From the NCBI GenBank assembly GCA_951406725.2, contig OX597842.1, positions 2,666,001-2,730,000 on the forward strand: a stretch of 64,000 bases of DNA. Reading direction: 5' to 3'. How positions within the stretch are numbered: the stretch's first letter is position 1; every line of letters begins with the position of its first letter. Positions 7,300-61,534 of this stretch are shown here, piece after piece. Both the position numbers and the translations under genes were made by a program. The notes beneath the pieces were generated by a model. That model did no database searches. It saw only the letters and a program-made list of their open reading frames with translations, and was not told where the DNA came from. This DNA comes from Octopus vulgaris. Taxonomy: Eukaryota.

Positions 7300-7640
7300 G
7301 TAAAGACCTCTTTTCATCATGAATGACCATGGGATTGCACCTGGAAAGTTCCCTGCCAAGGTACACAAGTCCAGGCAATGTTGTCTATGGAAGACCAGCA
7401 TTCACCCATGCATGCCAGCCTCCCCTCTCCATGCCACCAGTGTTATCCAAGGGAAAGGCAAAGGGACCGATACAGCTTGGCACCTGTGACACCACAACTC
7501 ATTTTTACAGCTGAGTGAACTGGAGCAACGTGAAATAGAGTGTCTTGCTCAAGAACACAGTACACAGCCTGGTCCAGGAATCAAATTCATAACCTCATGA
7601 CTGTAAATCAAACACTCTACCCACTGAGCCATGTGCCTTT
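7300..7640 (-). mobile_element. tRNA-derived SINE family C
   Basis: Homologous to 26290-26622; minus strand has a tRNA-like head followed by GTGTTCTTGAGCAAGACACT. Confidence 0.75.
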
Positions 7641-8477
7641 GCTAAGGTGCAAGTGGCTGAGTACTCCACAGACATGTGTACCCTTTTCTGTTCACAAATC
7701 CACTTAGAAGGCTTTGATATGCCCAAGGCTACAACAGAAGACATTTACCCATGGTACAACGCAGTAGGACTGAACCTGGAACCATGTGGTTGGGAAGCAA
7801 GCTTCCTACCACACAGCCGCGCCTTTGTGACTTACCATATATCTTCAGTCAATCTGGCCTTCTATCAGAACCTGTGTAAGGTTCTGCATGGAAACTGTGT
7901 ATAAGTCAGCACATATAGATATACATACATATATGTATATATATATATTTGTGTGTATATATATATATATATTTGTATGAGTGACGGTGATGACAGTGAT
8001 GGTGATGATGATGATGATGATGATGATGACGTGTGTGTGTATGGAGGGAGAGTATATGGATGTTGATTATCGTTATCAAAAATAACGCAGAAAAAAATAT
8101 GCCTTAGAGGTGTGTTCTGCTTGCTAAACACACACACACACATGTGCATATACATACACACACACACACACACACACATGTACAAGCATTCCTACCTCTT
8201 TCTCTCTCCATGATATATGTTAATTTGTGATTATTTTACAGGAAACTAGTCACAAAGAAATTTATAAACACTCATATATATACATATATATACACACACA
8301 GACACATATGTGCATATACACACATTTACATAACATGTACATACATACACTTAAGCATACACACACAAACACACATACATACATATATATTAATGTACGC
8401 ATTCATATATATATATATACATATAAATTCACACACATAAATATACATATACAAATTCACATATATATGCACATATC

Positions 8478-8513
<36 letters not shown>

Positions 8514-9159
8514 TGATATATATGTACACATACACACACATCTCTCTCCCTTTCTCTCTCTCTCTCTATCTCTATCAATCTCTCTCTATATATAGATATA
8601 TACATATATATATGAATGTATGTATGTATGTACGTATGTATGTATGCTGTTTCAATTAATGCTAATTATTTAAAAAGATAATATTTTAAGATAAGTGTCT
8701 GATGAAAGGCAATTCAATATGGCCGTTCTTTTACAGTCCCTGGTGGCCATATATATTTTAACTGCCATTGGTTTTTTTTTTTACACAAACACACATCCAT
8801 GCTATAAATTTGATGGATATTTTATATGATATGAAATTCTCTTTGTGTACTTCAGTGTTTGTATGTGTGTGTGAGTATATGTGGCAAGTATCTGTGATTA
8901 GGTGCCTGTGTATACATGTGTGTGTGTATTTTATACGATGTTTGTGTATCATACTAAAATATATAATATATATATTCATGTAATAAACGTTATGCATTTG
9001 TGTTATTGAATATATATATATATATATTAACATCAACACCAGCAATGTTGGTGGAACATTTCCATCAAAATTTCAACCGAGTGCAAGGACAACAGGCCAG
9101 ATATTGTTCTTTGGGATGGACAAGAAAAAAGTAAGACATACAACACATGCATATACATA

Positions 9160-9593
9160 CATTCATGCATACATACATACATACATACAGAGAGACAGAT
9201 ATACATACATACATACATACATACATACATACATACATACATACAGAGAGACATACATACATACATACATACATACATACATACAGAGAGACAGACAGAC
9301 ATACATACATACATACATACATACATACATACATACAGAGAGACATACATACATACATACATACATACATACATACATACATACATACAGAGAGACATAC
9401 ATACATACATACATACATACATACATACAGACATACATACAGAGAGACATACATACATACATACATACATACATACATACAGAGAGACATACATACATAC
9501 ATACATACATACATACATACATACATACATACATACAGAGAGACATACATACATACATACATACATACATACATACATACATACATACATACA

Positions 9594-9627
<34 letters not shown>

Positions 9628-9693
9628 CAGAGAGACAGACAGACATACATACATACATACATACATACATACATACATACATACATACATACA
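9160..9693. repeat. (CATA)n microsatellite with periodic CAGAGAGA interruptions
   Basis: Direct inspection; it is the source of the 224-289 aa pseudo-ORFs. Confidence 0.95.
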
Positions 9694-9912
9694 GCTTCTG
9701 CACGCATTTTTTTTCTCTCCTTGTTTCTCTCCTTGTTTCTCTCCTTGTTTCTCTCCGTGTTTCTTTTCTGTGTATCTTTCTGTTGAAGAGCTTAGGCTTG
9801 AAACGTAAAAGACTTGTTTTATTTCTATTCCTGAGCACCATACTAATACAATTGTTTGTTTGTACTCCACCTGCCTTCGTCTTTTGTTTATTTTCATAAA
9901 GCTTCCCGTTAC
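9694..9912 (+). mobile_element. Family H1 hammerhead-bearing element
   Basis: 9775-9812 TCTTT CTGTTGA AGAGC TTAG GCTT GAAAC GTA AAAGA; homologous to 5557-5737. Confidence 0.8.
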
Positions 9913-11842: not shown

Positions 11843-11934
11843 TATATACATATATATATATATATATACCGGAGTAAACACATAAATGTGAAACAAAGTG
11901 GAGAAAAGAGTACTCAAATACCAGTGGTAGAGTA

Positions 11935-12104
11935 ATATGCTTTATTTAAAGCAGCAGAAAATTCTACAAAACCTGTTACTCTGAGTTTCGTGTTGCCGTT
12001 CGTCAGACAGTTTTTGCTAGAATTCTAGCAAAAACTGTCCGACGAATGGCAATGGGAAACTCTGAGTAACAGGTTTTGTAGAATTTTCTGCTGCTTTAAA
12101 TAAA

Positions 12105-12110
<6 letters not shown>
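11935..12110. mobile_element. Spacerless palindrome (~88-bp arms) with two outward-facing hammerhead motifs
   Basis: Centred on GAATTC (12020-12025). Minus 11973-12010: CTGT CTGACGA ACGGCAACAC GAAAC TCAGA GTA ACAG. Plus 12035-12072: CTGT CCGACGA ATGGCAATGG GAAAC TCTGA GTA ACAG. Confidence 0.85.
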
Positions 12111-28246: not shown

Positions 28247-30095
28247 CACTTAACCATGTGCCTTCAAGCAATAAAAGAATAAATATAATTATCAACGTTT
28301 TAACCTGGAAATAGGTTCCATGTCATTTTGCTAGGGTATGGCTGAGGGCGGTAGGGCCCAAGGGCAACTGGCATCTTAACAAAATATTGATTGATACATC
28401 CCACTCTTTCCACACTGAAATCCTGAAGTTCAAGTCCTGCTCCTTTTCTGGGGTGGGTGGATCCTTAATGAAACAATTACACTGTGGTTGAATAAGTATC
28501 TGACACCCCTGAGGGGTGGATCCACCCAGCATATGTTCCATTTAATGATGGAGTAATTAAGAAAATATATAATGTATGTTAATTGATTGGTGGTGGGAAT
28601 ATTGTTTTGTTTCGAAGTCTGTCAGGCATAAGTAACTTTATGGTGTGTTTGACCTGATTAATAGAAATAGCAGCTGAAACTCCCTCACTCAACACCACAC
28701 TACAACACCACCAACACCGTCAACACAACCACATACTGCCATCAGCAGCACACTGTAACAAAACTTCCACGCTGCCACCATCTTTATCACCATGACAACC
28801 ACCACCATCACCACCACCACCACCGTCACCACCACTACTTTCACTACCACCACTTCCATCACCTTCATTGCCGCCATCACCACCACCATCATCATTACCA
28901 TTACTACAACCACCGCCAACCATTATCACGACGACCACCACCACCACCATCATCACTACCACCACCACCACCAACACAACCACCACCACCAACACAACCA
29001 CCATCACCACCACCAACACAACCACCATCACCACCACCAACACAACCACCACCACCACCACCACCACCACCACCAACACAACCATCTCCACCATCATCAC
29101 CACTATTACTACACAACTACCACTACCATAACCAACATAACATACTACAACCTGACTACTACATATTTCCACTTGACACCATCTCTCTCTCTTTCTCTCA
29201 CACACAGAGTTACCAATACTGTAACAACTATACAATATACCACCACTTAAACCGCCACCACCTGAACACAACACCACACTATGCTACAACAATCCCCTAC
29301 CCCTTCATCAGATATTTCCACCCAGGAATGACACCTACCCTTAACAACTTCAACCACAACAATAACAACAACAAGCAATTTGATATTATCACGGATGTCA
29401 TTGCAAGCAACTTGACACCTCAACCACCACCACCACCACCACCACCACCACATCACCACCACCACCGGTGACATTAGATAAGGTAGGTACCTCTATGTGG
29501 TCTCTCAACCTGTGAAAAATTTACCCCACAAAACCTCCCATCTAAGACACCCTCCTGCTGCTGTTGTATTTAAGAGCTTGAAACCCATCTCTTGCCTGTG
29601 GCTAATTAAAGTATTTTTGGTATACTAGCTCTTGTATATACACCATATTTGTATATGCAGTTAGGTATATAAGCACGTGTATGTATGCAACCATGTGTGT
29701 GTGTTAATATATATGATGTATAGTACTATAGTTAGTATTGGTGGTTATAGCTTTTGTTGTTTAGCCCCAGGTCAGTTTGATCCAGTGGACCTACACTGGC
29801 GAAAATAAATTTAAGACCGATGATAAAAGTTCTATTTCTTACAAAATATTTTGTTACTAACACCATACAAATTATTTCTATCTTTCACACCTTATGCAGA
29901 ATTTATTTCTCTTTCGAATGATGCAGACAATAACTATTTTTATACAACTTGAAGAATTCTAATGCTAAATTAATATAAACGTTTCAAATTTACCAGCAAA
30001 ATTAGTTTAAGACCAAATCATTATAATTTCATTATAAGAAATATTAAATTTCTAAATCTTAATTATTTAGAAATTTCATATTTCTTATTTTGATA

Positions 30096-30569
30096 ATCAG
30101 TGAATAAACTTCACTGAAATTAGATATATACATTTGCGAGTCGAGGCAGATATCAACAGCTGATCGGTGTCTGCTAGTCTAGACCGACAAAGGACAATGA
30201 TCCTGAAACACGCATGTCTCAGCATCAGTACTTTGGAGTAAAGATTGTTTGCCAACATAACATGGCAGTCATGGTTTAGGACGAATGTTGCTGTAATTTA
30301 GCCCCAGGAGGCATCACCTCCAGCTGGGTATATGACATGATCTGTGTCTGAACAGTTATTCTGTGCTGATGAAGAGAAATAACCCAGAAATCGCGATACA
30401 CAGATATTGTTTTGAAATAAGTGGGGGCACTAGATTCCCTTGTTTGAAAATATAAGGACACAGATCATGTGTCATATAGCCAGTTGGAGACAATGTCTCC
30501 TGGGGCTAAACTACAGCAACATTCGTCCTGTAGAAGGACTGCCATGTTTATGTTACCAAGCAATCTTTA
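30096..30569 (+). mobile_element. Family H2 element: ~110-bp inverted repeats plus two hammerhead motifs
   Basis: Arms 30240-30348 / 30457-30569. Motifs at 30178-30222 (AGA CCGACAA AGGA..TCCT GAAAC ACGCAT GTC TC) and 30360-30404 (TCTGTG CTGATGA AGAGAAATAACCCA GAAA TCGCGA TA CACAGA). 30096-30184 is homologous to the reverse of 41161-41245. Confidence 0.75.
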
Positions 30570-30660
30570 TGGCTTAGTTTGTTGTCCACCTAAGGTACAT
30601 GTATGTATATGTGTTTATGTGTGTTCATAATGCATATAACTCCATTGCAGTTGATATATC

Positions 30661-35148: not shown

Positions 35149-36399
35149 AGGGGTTGGACAAAATAATGGAAACAAATTTTCAAACAAATTTACTTTTATT
35201 ATGGAGTAGGACCACCTTGACAGTGATTACAGCTTGAATTCTATGAGGTATGGACTCATACAAAGTTTCAAGTGTTTCAAAAAGAATTTTTGTCCATTCT
35301 TCAGCTAAAACAGTCTCCAGTTCTTGTAGTGATGATGGTAGAGGATATCGACTCCCTGCTTGTTTTTCTATAATGCACCATAAATGTTCAATAATATTGA
35401 GATCTGGGGAATGTGGTGGCCAGATAAGATGTTCAACTTCACTAGAATGTTCCTCGTGCCATTCAGTAACAACTTTAGCTGTGTGAATTGGGGCATTATC
35501 ATCCTGAAAGATTGCATTTCCCTCCAGAAACAGTTCTGCAAACATAGGATGAATTTGATCAGATAAAATGCTCAAATAGTCTTGACTATTAATTCTGCTA
35601 TGAAATGAAACCAGTGGGCTAGCGGATTTCCAAGATATAGCACCCTGATCATCCTCCATGTTTAATAGTTGGAAGAAGGCAGTCTGGGTCAAATGCTTCC
35701 TTTGGCTGTCTCCACATGTATTCCTAGCCAGTGGTCAGAAATAAGGTAAAGGATGACTTGTCTAAGAAAATAACATTCTTCCACTGCTCTAGGGACCAAT
35801 TCTGTAGGGTTTTTATTCCACTCTAAATGCTTTGCAACGTTTGTTTTGAAAGGAGTGATTTTCTGATTGCAGCCCTCCCATGAAATCCAGCTTTGTGCAG
35901 CTGCCAGTGAACAGTTTTTGTGGAAACTGGATTCTCCAGGTGGTCATTAAGCTCTGCAGTAATTTTCAGAGCTGTACTTTTGTGATCCTTCCAAACAATT
36001 TGTGTAAGAGTCCAATGGTCCTTATCTGAATGTTTTGGATTTCTTCCAGAGTTTTCTTTCAATGAGGAGGTGTTTCCCTCTTTCTCAAAGGCTGTCATTA
36101 CTTTTGAGACAATACTTCTTGATACACCGAATATTTCGGCTGTTTTCATTATGCTAGTGCCTGCCATACAAGCACCAACAATTTGACCTCTTTGAAAGTC
36201 CAATAGATCTGTCATTTTAATGAATTTTAATTACCTTTTTCTGATGATATCTGAAAAACAAACTGCAATTTTAACAAAACATATTAAGCAACACTAGTAA
36301 TAAATCAGAAAGCATAAACAAGCTTTTGACGGTTTTATAGATATTTCAAAATGATGATGCTATGATGCTAGGTATTCCTTTTATTTTGTCCAACCCCTG
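35149..36399 (-). mobile_element. Tc1/mariner DNA transposon, near full length (~1.25 kb)
   Basis: TIRs AGGGGTTGGACAAAATAATGGAA / TTCCTTTTATTTTGTCCAACCCCTG|TA enclosing a transposase relic. Confidence 0.9.
35200..36215 (-). pseudogene. Disrupted Tc1-type transposase (DD36E)
   Basis: N-terminal HTH MTDLLDFQRGQIVGACMAG..GVSRSIVSKVM (35823-36215); NVIFLDKSSF near 35760; FQDDNAPIH...WPPHSPDLNIIEHLW (35180-35692); frameshifted. Confidence 0.9.
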
Positions 36400-40347: not shown

Positions 40348-40900
40348 GTATATATATATGCACACTGACATATATGTATATGCATGACAGTTATTATAGG
40401 TGACTGGTATTTCCTGTAACACTGTACTGGCTTTTACTTGAAACTCATTTCTTGAGGCATTATTATTTTCAAATAAAGATTTTAAAAATATCCTAAATTT
40501 CCTTATTGTTGAAATTTGAATTGAAATTAAATTTAAATTCATGTAGCCTGCTGTTTGAAAATCTCAAGCAGAAAAAGAAAAACGTTTAAAAACGTAAGCA
40601 TAAATTTTCTTCTGTACAAAATGTGTAGATCCGTCTCCTACATTGAATATCATAGCAGATACAGTACTTCAACCACAGAAAATGTGCATCTCTTCCTTCC
40701 ATTATATGGCTCCATTTTATATCCACTTCTTGCTTCTATTATGTGGTTCCACTTTATATCAACACCATTTTGAGGTTCCGCATGTGTTGGGATGGTGAAT
40801 CATAGTTACTTCTGTCAGTATTTTTAAATGAATGTGTGTGTGTTATGCATCATATTTTGATGGTATTTTCTGTTAATATTATATAAGCTTTTTTTTTTCA

Positions 40901-41303
40901 AAAATAGAAATAATGCATGTCTAAATCTCTCAGAGAGATTTATACAGAAGTAACACTATAAAATGGTGGTATGTTGCCAACTTAATGTGACAGTCCCATG
41001 AAAGGGAATAATATTACTGCTATTTAGCCCTAGGAAGCACTGCTTCCTGTTGGCCTTGACGCACTTCCTGTGTCCTTATGTTTACAAAGGGGGAGATTAG
41101 TAATTCCACCCAGCAAAGCCAACATCCAGAGACTAGTTTCTGAGTTATTGCTCATCATCAGTCTGGAGTTGCATGGCTTGCTAGCTGTCGATGCCTATCT
41201 GCCTCTGTAAACATATAATAATTCAAGTGAAATACATTCACTGATAATAATCACTACTGTATAAATCTCTCTGAGAGATTTAGAAATGTATTATTTCTAT
41301 TTT
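40901..41303 (-). mobile_element. Family H2 element bounded by ~47-bp inverted repeats
   Basis: AAAATAGAAATAATGCATGTCTAAATCTCTCAGAGAGATTTATACAG / CTGTATAAATCTCTCTGAGAGATTTAGAAATGTATTATTTCTATTTT; interior homologous to 57590-57770. Confidence 0.8.
41125..41167 (-). ncRNA. Intact minimal type I hammerhead ribozyme motif
   Basis: UCCAGA CUGAUGA UGAG CAAUAA CUCA GAAAC UA GUC UCUGGA: 6-bp stem I, 4-bp stem II, all core bases, palindromic ACUAGU stem III, GUC cleavage triplet. Confidence 0.85.
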
Positions 41304-41339
41304 CGAAATCAGGGAAAATAGGTATGAGGCTGAAAGTTT

Positions 41340-41970
41340 ATCTTTGTTACTGGATTTGCAAACTCATTACCAATGGTCCATAGATGTCCTCTTTTCTCTT
41401 GTATTTTCCTAACCACATTTGTGTCCAGAGGGCAACTGATTTCCACAACAGAGCATATCTTTTCTTTTGTGGTCTCACATAACAATATCTGGCCAGTTGT
41501 CTTTTAACATGGTGGCTGATTTAATTTTCAAGTTCCACCAATATTCTTTTGACCCATTGGTCTCAATATGAACAACTTCATTTGTAAGAGGTATTCTCTT
41601 TTTTTTTGTGTTATCCTTTTCCAGACTGTTCTGGCCACTACATCCTCCCTCTTGAGAAGATAATATCAGGAAGACATTCTCTTGCAAATGGTAATAATAC
41701 CGTTGATGTCTTTAGTCTTGGTCTTACACAGCCTACATTTGTTGCCTGTCAACGTTTTCTGCCTCTTATGTTGTAGGTACTTGGTGGGGGGGGTCTCTTG
41801 TTCTTGGATTGCATGGATCTAGCCTTCAAAGAAGGATGTCACAAACTTGTCGGTACTCCATACCAAGCTGTTGACAGACTTGATTCCTTCTTTGGTTTTT
41901 GTTGTACATGCCAAGTCCCCATGTATTATCTTCTCAGTGAAGTGGTTAATTTTTTCCTCTGTTGTTCTGA
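41340..41970 (-). pseudogene. R4/Dong-like LINE fragment (CCHC knuckle + RLE)
   Basis: Minus translation EG*IHAIQEQE..TKYL; KCRLCKTKTKDINGIITIC; EYWWNLKIKSATMLKDNWPDIVM. Confidence 0.7.
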
Positions 41971-41987
41971 TATGTATGTATGTATGT

Positions 41988-57402: not shown

Positions 57403-57717
57403 CAGGTCTATGTGCATGTATTCAAATATGTGCAGGTATATACACATAAATATATACATACATATATATATACTTACACACATATATGTAATGTATACAC
57501 ACATGTATAAATAAATATATACATATGAATATATACATATATGCATATATACATACACACACACATGTATATAAAGTAGTTGTATACTCTCAACTTAATG
57601 TGACAGTCATACTACTGCTATTTAGCCCTAGGAAGCAGCAATGCTTCCTGTTGGTCTTGACACATTTCCTTATGTTTACAAGGGGGAGACAAGCACCTCC
57701 ACCCCGCTAATCTTACA

Positions 57718-57760
57718 TCCGGAGACTAGTTTCTGAGTATTTGATCGTCATCAGTCTGGA
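57718..57760 (-). ncRNA. Second H2 hammerhead motif (partly decayed)
   Basis: UCCAGA CUGAUGA CGAUCAAAUACUCA GAAAC UA GUC UCCGGA; core intact, stems I and II mismatched. Confidence 0.7.
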
Positions 57761-58559
57761 GCAGCATGGCAAACATATGATGATGGCACCTATGATGATG
57801 GCCCATAAAAGTCACCTTTCAGGTTTTGGGGCTCATGGAGGCAAAGTGGCTAAGTTCATTTCAAGTGTTGGGCTTCATAGAGACAATGAACAAGACCTTT
57901 GGCATTTTGTCGTGTTTGAGAAGAAGACCCATCAAGCTGAGCAAAATCACAGTTGTGGCAGATACCAGTGCCATGCAAATGGCACCTGTGCAGGTGGAAC
58001 ATAAAAACACCCATTTTACTCTCAGAGTCATTGGCGTTAGGAAGGGCATCCAGCCATAGAAAACCATGTCAAATCAGACTGGAGTCTGGTGCAGCCTTCC
58101 ATCTTACCAGCCCTGATCAAACCGTCCAACTCATGCCAGCATGGACAATGGACGTTAAATGATGATGATGTTATATACATATATGTATGCATATATACAT
58201 ATATATGATTTGATTTCATCTAGTTTCAGCTCATGATCTATGGCCATGCTGGGGCACTGCCATTTGGTGTTGCTACATAAAATTATTTATATATATATAC
58301 ACATATATATATATACACATATCTATGTGTATATATGTATGTATATATATGTGTGTATAAATATATATGAGTGTGTGTGTGTGTATATATATGTGTGTGT
58401 GTGTATATATATATTTGTGTGTGTGTGTGTATATATATATATGTGTGTGTGAGTATAATATGTACTTATATATGTGTATATATATATATGTATATGTGTA
58501 AGTATGGACGTACATGTATATATACATATATGTAAATGTATGTACATACATGTGTATAA

Positions 58560-60432: not shown

Positions 60433-60946
<514 letters not shown>

Positions 60947-60965
60947 GTATATATACACATACACA

Positions 60966-61534
60966 CAGGCATGCAGGAAGTAAATGGACACCTTTAATTT
61001 TCAAAATTTCTGATCTAAGTGTCCTAATATGTTTTCAGCGGTATAGAATTTACAATGTAATTATTCTTTTTCATTCCAGGTGCCATTATATTAAACATTT
61101 GCGAAGAGTAACCATGCCACACACAAAAAATTCAGCAGAATTCTCAGATTTTCAAAGAGGTCGTATTGTTGGGGAATCTAAGGCTGGTCTTAGACAGCGA
61201 AAAATTGCTGAAAATCTTCAAATTCTTGTTGCTACTGTTAATAGAATTATAATGCAATTTAAAAACCAAAGAAAAGAATCAACAGATTCTCATCCTGGCT
61301 CACCTGGGCCCTTGGAAAGGAAGCTTTGCTGTTTGAAGAGAATTGTGGAAAGCGAACCTGTTCAAAGGCTTCTGACATTGCAAAACAGCCAGAAGTTAGT
61401 CCAAGAACGTGTGTTACATATCTGCATAAGCTGGGGTATTATGGATGAGCAGCTAGAAGAAAACCTCTCCTTCAACCAATTAATATCAAATAAAAGATTT
61501 TGAAAATTAAAAGTGTCTATTTACTTCCTGCATG

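Follow-up and report, generated by a model that had tools for sequence, protein, structure and literature searches.

A retrozyme-type hammerhead repeat in Octopus vulgaris with insertion scars that point to a Penelope-type enzyme

Layout of the locus

The window (that is, the whole 64,000-nt stretch of Octopus vulgaris DNA that was analysed) contains one aged copy of an abundant non-coding mobile repeat with a predicted self-cutting RNA (Table 1). This copy comprises one complete 349-nt unit (91% identity to the family majority; unit positions are given as s1 to s349) whose 3′ end lies at the outer ('B') of two family end sites, beside a T run, and an inverted second arm that meets the unit head to head. 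An initial annotation had described a MITE-looking element enclosed by inverted repeats of approximately 47 bp; the arms are indeed there, although they are longer than that, with 40896–40951 and 41253–41308 matching over 56 nt at 93% complementarity. As the copy is a full unit plus an inverted arm, the apparent terminal inverted repeat is the last 55 nt of the unit in both orientations, and the two ends are unequal, as the right arm extends to 41316, 8 nt past the inverted match. We found no open reading frame of at least 120 aa in 40896–41316, and thus not the reverse transcriptase (RT) and GIY-YIG domains of an autonomous Penelope-like element. The left junction was confirmed by a contig from another sequencing run, which covers 40430–40943 with 3 differences; among the matches listed, no contig bridged the right junction, and an empty site was absent from four further sequencing runs. 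The hairpin in the tail of the unit is likely to be a signal for protein binding or initiation.

Table 1 Features of the hammerhead repeat, its neighbours and its relatives (positions in the window unless a locus is named)
Feature	Position	Strand	Remark
Complete 349-nt hammerhead-repeat unit	40896..41245	-	s1 at 41245 to s349 at 40896
Tail between inner end site A and outer site B	40896..40957	-	Site A (s287) at 40958; left arm of the inverted repeat
Hairpin in tail	40918..40946		Between both end sites; 14-nt arms, 93%
Type I hammerhead	41125..41167	-	Predicted cut after 41131, the C of GUC
Empty 13-nt site s58–s70	41175..41187	-	Target of presumed Tx1-like LINEs in other copies
Head-to-head arm junction	41246..41253		8 nt, poor fit to either arm
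Inverted second arm	41254..41316	+	s295 via s349 to s9, 63 nt; 95% identity to majority
Old LINE interior	41317..41972	-	Broken off at 41317; at least 1,311 candidates
Older single-arm copy, s68–s287	57571..57770	-	Ends exactly at site A beside a TA-rich run
Distant relative with decayed hammerhead	30065..30570		~65%; own inverted arms at 30220–30348 (minus) and 30366–30559 (plus)
LINE-bearing loci elsewhere	L127 (rc 7332–9782), L154 (1–3208), L147 (7963–9476), L148, L150, L146, L152		

Two related copies in the window had been thought to share the interior but to lack the inverted termini. This is so for the older single-arm copy, in which the core letters of the hammerhead are intact and helices I and II are damaged (8.1 kcal/mol; 77% identity). 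The distant relative does have inverted arms of its own (331 nt at 70% identity) and, at 30065–30104, part of the arm sequence in common with the window copy; no complete core is present in its hammerhead motif at 30366, and another decayed motif, near 30175–30215, starts with CCGA in place of CUGA. Open frames elsewhere in the window (35180–36230 and 60940–61503) look to us like fragments of Tc1/mariner transposases.

The repeat family

A genome search (2.8 Gb in 227 contigs, rich in microsatellites) gave at least 2,643 candidates, of which 40 were scored. The sample was drawn from 121 loci (30 from this search, 2 from exact matches to the hammerhead core, 30 from matches to the degenerate 31-nt core pattern and 59 further loci), reduced to 114 by dropping 7 overlaps. 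Across these 114 loci, the family unit is 349 nt long, non-coding and circularly permuted (that is, arms pass from s349 into s1), with a GC content below 50% and a median identity to the family majority of 91%. The unit thus combines the non-coding length of 150–400 nt and the single type I hammerhead that characterize non-LTR retrozymes. Partial tandems, in which an arm exceeds one unit, account for 38 of 188 arms, and the longest of them (612 nt, or 1.75 units) falls below what would be expected of a retrozyme. The 114 loci contain no array of at least two full units, nor is a coding body attached to the unit in any sampled locus. Contigs with family sequence, mostly at 90–95% identity, are also present in three runs that we guess to be RNA, and are uninformative on the window copy, strand, cleavage and circles.

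The hammerhead ribozyme

All elements of the minus-strand hammerhead that the initial annotation had placed here, including the predicted cut after GUC, were found. Helix I (6 bp, 41167–41162 with 41130–41125, and more pairs beyond a bulge) is followed by CUGAUGA, helix II (4 bp with a 6-nt loop) and GAAA, and helix III consists of 2 bp around a palindromic UA (AC-UA-GU), so that CUGANGA, GAAA and UH are present in order together with helices I and II, as in a type I hammerhead. The 81-nt hammerhead region folds better than shuffled sequences (z −2.88). The description of the motif as perfect and fully intact holds for the core letters only, because Rfam is silent, a monomer cannot form helix III in the normal way and the active fold is disfavoured. 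An Rfam search at the region returned 6 hits up to an E value of 10 without a hammerhead among them; for the whole window, no hammerhead appeared among the 150 hits listed out of 421, which are microsatellite noise. In the predicted monomer fold, the hammerhead-compatible structure lies 3.3 kcal/mol above the ensemble, with inactive pairing favoured, and the helix III palindrome pairs with itself at −4.8 kcal/mol. The base of helix II is U-A in the window copy, with a G-C pair one step inward, in place of the G10.1-C11.1 pair that PMC4209133 terms highly conserved; in 22 intact cores of the family, this position is U.U in 10, C.A in 7, U-A in 3 and another combination in 2.

The hammerhead core is constrained within the family. 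In the 28 top-scoring loci, which are not independent, core letters differ at 2.7% of positions (11/408), compared with 8.8% (1041/11872) elsewhere (site permutation, p 0.0025). The 33-nt core is found unchanged at two places in the genome, and a degenerate 31-nt core pattern matches 157 times, 100 of these places being listed, whereas the reversed controls each gave 0 matches.

A short helix III marks the dimer type of hammerhead, according to PMC4209133, and the folds suggest that the window hammerhead would cut weakly alone and better as a dimer. In related systems, a monomer of an axolotl motif with U.U at the helix II base cuts 22% in an hour and its dimer far more, a coral hammerhead monomer cuts fast (both as reported in PMC7229834) and, among Xenopus dimers, 1 of 9 cut at all (bioRxiv 10.64898/2026.07.22.740005). 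We thus predict modest odds of activity for the window copy, which carries one hammerhead only, and regard its activity as a lone monomer as doubtful. Its ranking as the best ribozyme candidate in the window is upheld among the three copies compared (on the basis of 8 pattern hits and predicted folds). No pile-up of arm 5′ ends was seen at the cleavage site (s114/115) in the 114 loci.

Ends, arm pairing and target duplications

The outer 3′ ends of the arms (n = 182) concentrate at two sites approximately 55 nt apart, 63 at s281–288 (site A) and 71 at s334–349 (site B), and the hairpin is positioned between them. Inner 5′ ends, by comparison, are spread evenly across all ten 35-nt bins. The initial annotation had asked whether the endpoints are fixed or variable; in the 114 loci they are both, with outer ends nearly fixed at two sites, and inner 5′ ends and arm lengths variable.

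These loci contain 120 insertions, of which 63 are two-armed and head to head, 56 have a single orientation and 1 is complex. Two-armed insertions pair one end of each kind: 44 are AB, 1 is AA, 1 is BB (the window copy) and 17 have an unclassified end (3 of these end at the point of a later LINE insertion), so that AB pairing accounts for 44 of the 46 that can be classified with end classes that were set wide (A, s260–299; B, s325–s10) after the data had been inspected. For loci picked by the hammerhead pattern only, the proportion is 35 of 36 (binomial p 5e-10 against 0.5). The inverted repeat formed by the two arms varies in length from 15 to 347 nt. Junctions between arms are variable and spread over the unit, and 38 of 58 have an overlap of at least 1 nt. 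A 14-nt inverted repeat within the unit (s30–43/s155–168; 41202–41215 and 41077–41090 in the window) coincides with the arm junction in approximately 4 of the 63 (L055, L063, L064 and L066).

Target duplications with a score of at least 9 flank 31 of the 63 two-armed insertions (24 of them not of low complexity), compared with 4 of 247 shuffled flank pairs. They are present in 30 of the 44 AB insertions, where they span approximately 9–15 bp, the remaining 14 having none at this score; overall they measure 9–17 nt with a mode of 12, probably a slight overestimate owing to chance extension. Single-orientation copies have a duplication in 13 of 55 cases, against 17 of 213 controls, and a dinucleotide run lies within 20 nt of 44 of 238 ends. 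The family therefore has what is expected of sequences mobilized by Penelope-like elements (that is, a head-to-head inverted 5′-truncated copy, a tail on one arm and a short target duplication), of which the window copy lacks the latter two.

LINE insertions in the unit

Several diverged LINE families, which we take to be Tx1-like, have inserted exactly at s58–s70, immediately before the hammerhead on its upstream side (14 junctions by pattern; Table 1). A 13-nt duplication accompanies these insertions, some of which are in tandem. They encode a zinc-knuckle ORF1 (Pfam E 9.7e-6) and, in one locus (L146), an RT (E 1.4e-7). The sequence shared upstream of s58 was considered as a coding body of the unit and rejected, as it consists of these LINEs inserted with their 13-nt duplication. 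At three loci (L143, L144 and L145, near 9200–9300), the 13-nt site and a LINE 3′ end precede an unrelated RT-coding repeat; because the site also precedes this non-retrozyme repeat, the target may be read by sequence alone. At three others (L126, L149 and L151), a LINE piece and the repeat unit were apparently mobilized jointly, in a single two-armed insertion.

Origin of the right end

The old LINE interior to the right of the window copy (a 'restriction-like endonuclease LINE', as we presume from translation motifs) continues leftward past the 41317 breakpoint in 8 of the 9 relatives compared, and the missing continuation is absent from the left flank and from the rest of the window. No target duplication was found at the window copy, its end at s9 is 1 of 182 ends, and the right junction has 3 nt in common with the LINE interior. 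Given that there is no target duplication and that the arm halts at a broken LINE, we read the right end as a likely deletion scar; this 'terminus' is probably a later breakpoint and not an end made by reverse transcription. The proposal of the initial annotation that the inverted ends arose by Penelope-type insertion and do not mark a MITE is thus borne out by the family, and does not extend to the right end of the window copy. As the window copy is the sole BB case and has no target duplication, its origin has to be argued from the family. Its main arm may have started at site B and copied one whole unit, and its second arm likely reached site A until a deletion cut the arm at 41316; the same event would have removed both the target duplication and a piece of the adjoining LINE, and the 56 nt that remain would look like a terminal inverted repeat. 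In itself, the window copy is unremarkable and damaged, and its 'terminal inverted repeat' partly accidental.

Alternatively, both ends could be original, the window copy being a rare true double start at the outer site accompanied by a target-site deletion at insertion. The B cluster lies within approximately 20 nt of both its ends (s349 and s9), ends at s1–s2 are found in a few other copies, and a loss of target DNA would also account for the missing duplication and the broken LINE. We nevertheless consider a double start unlikely, given that no other BB case occurs in 45 classifiable insertions, that the end at s9 is unique and that the 3 nt common to the junction and the LINE interior resemble those of a microhomology deletion; moreover, one insertion (L002) has a second arm that starts at s289 and extends as far as site A, and would resemble the window copy if cut at s9.

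Search for the mobilizing element

A young coding Penelope-like family (loci L227–L246), with many identical copies, combines a 557-aa upstream frame and a 775-aa RT–GIY-YIG frame (Pfam E 5.8e-5 for the domain, in a relative), is inserted in (TA)n and has a 39-nt tail. Its two-armed copies follow the one-end-each pairing in 6 of 6 cases among 20 copies fetched. This one coding family, when compared with the unit, had no sequence in common with it (best E 0.65), and the hammerhead pattern was not found in its 3′ region. A second family, represented in the window at 11866–12110, is an inverted element of approximately 245 bp in (TA)n with a minimal hammerhead-like motif and a fixed palindromic centre, and has at least 1,759 candidates that are 95–97% alike. 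It is far more MITE-like than the hammerhead-repeat copy, yet bears a Penelope footprint; its second arm is approximately 70 nt short in 30 of 33 copies (the query selected long arms), so that a tail of this length is present on one arm, and it shares no sequence with the unit. Among the elements compared (that is, these two families), none was identified as the mobilizing element of the unit. One of the LINE-bearing loci (L152, 1–2334) contains a 778-aa open frame without a Pfam match, which to us resembles a Penelope RT of the Naiad type.

Proposed mechanism of insertion

On the basis of these observations, we consider it highly probable that the feature is an aged copy of a retrozyme-type 349-nt repeat (one whose copies have head-to-head arms, 3′ ends fixed at two sites and 5′ ends that vary) and that it was inserted by a Penelope-type RT/endonuclease. 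Such an enzyme is envisioned to make a staggered cut, approximately 9–13 nt apart, in AT-rich DNA, after which both 3′ overhangs may prime cDNA synthesis, one at site A (s287) and one at site B (approximately s341) with the hairpin between them, on a template that may have been a multimer or a circle. The two cDNAs would each terminate at a random point and be joined by short stretches of complementarity; the product would be an inverted repeat in which only one arm carries a tail, flanked by a target duplication. The hammerhead would likely serve to cleave multimeric RNAs, transcribed from tandem source copies, to unit length, a task that the window copy, with its single hammerhead, presumably could not perform by itself.

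The one-end-each pattern recurs in the retrozyme family (44/46), the coding element (6/6) and the short TA-targeting family (30/33). We tentatively suggest, with somewhat less than even confidence, that Penelope insertion might be an obligately asymmetric form of twin-priming, in which an enzyme dimer bound to the hairpin uses two fixed starts and one RNA, probably circular, is copied twice by strand displacement. If true, one rule would cover the tail on one arm, the inversion, arms longer than one unit and the duplication of approximately 12 bp.

The inverted arm may instead have arisen in a Penelope-type insertion by fold-back self-priming of one strand, without use of both cut strands, and fold-back self-priming on an antisense template has been proposed (PMC3846280). 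We judge this improbable for the family. The junction of the window copy does adjoin the hairpin (s295–s325), and in 18 of 42 two-piece AB insertions the A arm is contained in the B arm, but in the other 24 the A arm has more than 25 nt that are absent from the B arm, and all but 2 of these 24 A arms fall short of one unit in length and could not supply the tail of the B arm in one run. Fold-back copying fails to account for at least 22 of the 42, where neither arm includes all of the sequence found in the other. The four junctions at or near the 14-nt inverted repeat are usable by either model; junctions are otherwise scattered along the unit, and the sharp end at site A, flanked by a target duplication, is as expected if priming takes place a second time. 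The family thus provides a counted footprint, with one arm per start site and, in more than half of the cases, neither arm able to be the fold-back copy of the other, for second-strand synthesis in Penelope transposition, a step left open by the in vitro work of PMC11167929.

The possibility that the unit is no self-standing retrozyme and represents the orphaned pseudo-LTR of a coding Penelope element, left in 5′-truncated copies, appears slighter still. The footprint would match Penelope ends, and retrozymes and pseudo-LTRs are described as related (bioRxiv 10.64898/2026.07.22.740005). Against this, arms that run past s1 enter s349 of their own unit and never a shared coding body, the sole shared upstream sequences are the presumed Tx1-like LINEs inserted at s58, and the helix sizes of the hammerhead are canonical, not those of the minimal form (PMC4209133).

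Target duplications of Mutator-like DNA transposons measure 9–11 bp. That the feature is a MITE (for example, a Mutator-like one) that captured a hammerhead between terminal inverted repeats is barely tenable despite its 56-nt inverted arms, its size of 400 nt, its lack of an open reading frame, its thousands of copies and family duplications of approximately 9–13 bp that overlap the Mutator range, given that the arm is an internal part of the unit that usually continues head to tail, 56 of 120 insertions have no inverted arm and the arrangement of the window copy was seen once in 63. A terminal inverted repeat shared by both ends in most copies was not found, nor was a constant target duplication, the duplication being absent from the window copy and 9–17 nt long in the family; we exclude a DNA transposon because the sequences at the two ends of an insertion differ (44 AB), the length of the inverted repeats is variable (15–347 nt) and there are head-to-tail repeats. 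Fixed ends with constant duplications, which the initial annotation would have taken as the mark of such a transposon, were a mis-set test, as the ends here are nearly fixed and duplications exist, yet the ends are unequal. A retrozyme insertion with 56-nt inverted ends, whose relatives have 9–13-bp duplications, could be filed as a MITE by repeat pipelines.

Comparison with known systems

The likeness to MITEs extends to the short non-coding sequence, the many copies and, in the window copy, the inverted ends; the unequal ends, variable arm length, tandem permutation and 5′ truncation of the family set it apart. In L1 twin-priming, the second cut strand primes an inverted cDNA and a target duplication flanks the insertion; the two pieces are copied from neighbouring stretches of one RNA that do not overlap, and the second site has no fixed position. 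The octopus family resembles this in its flanking duplication and in the probable priming of an inverted cDNA from the second cut strand, and differs in that both arms copy the same stretch and that the second site is fixed.

Among metazoan non-LTR retrozymes, units measure 350–390 bp in mussel and 330 or 350 bp in axolotl (PMC7229834). The octopus family shares with those described there a short non-coding unit (here 349 nt), a GC content below 50%, one type I hammerhead per unit, head-to-tail permutation and larger target duplications; moreover, 10 of 22 intact cores have U.U as the helix II base, as does the axolotl HHR_Amex2 (PMC7229834). The family differs in that its copies mostly span 0.5–1.75 units without long arrays and that the helix III loop is 2 nt. 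With one hammerhead, the window copy does not count as 'active' by the two-unit rule given in bioRxiv 10.64898/2026.07.22.740005. Retrozymes may rely on Penelope elements, as has been suggested (PMC8969392), and the insertion scars reported here support the proposal that animal retrozymes travel with Penelope enzymes.

The two-armed Penelope-type footprint itself has already been described in print for Penelope elements, with an inverted 5′-truncated copy beside the element and a 30–40-bp tail often at one end only (PMC8557442), and with inverted pseudo-LTRs accompanied by 8–10-bp duplications (PMC3846280). In vitro, the Penelope-like element PAc cleaves and extends both strands, two internal start sites bound the tail and a dimer is predicted; its ribozyme sequence requires the protein for activity, and cutting is unnecessary for insertion (PMC11167929). 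No difference in start site between the two strands is reported there, which counts against a model with one site each. Endonuclease-bearing (EN+) Penelope-like elements and the octopus family have in common, as far as these sources describe the former, head-to-head arms, a tail between two 3′ end sites, variable 5′ ends, short duplications, AT- or TA-rich targets and a hammerhead upstream of the end sites; the family differs in having no open reading frame and a tail of approximately 55 nt. Our literature search met no paper on this family, on octopus retrozymes or on counts of arm pairing; subscription papers and supplements may contain such a model. Where the Penelope literature consulted has a tail 'often at one end', the one-end-each arrangement is here a counted property of the family (44/46).
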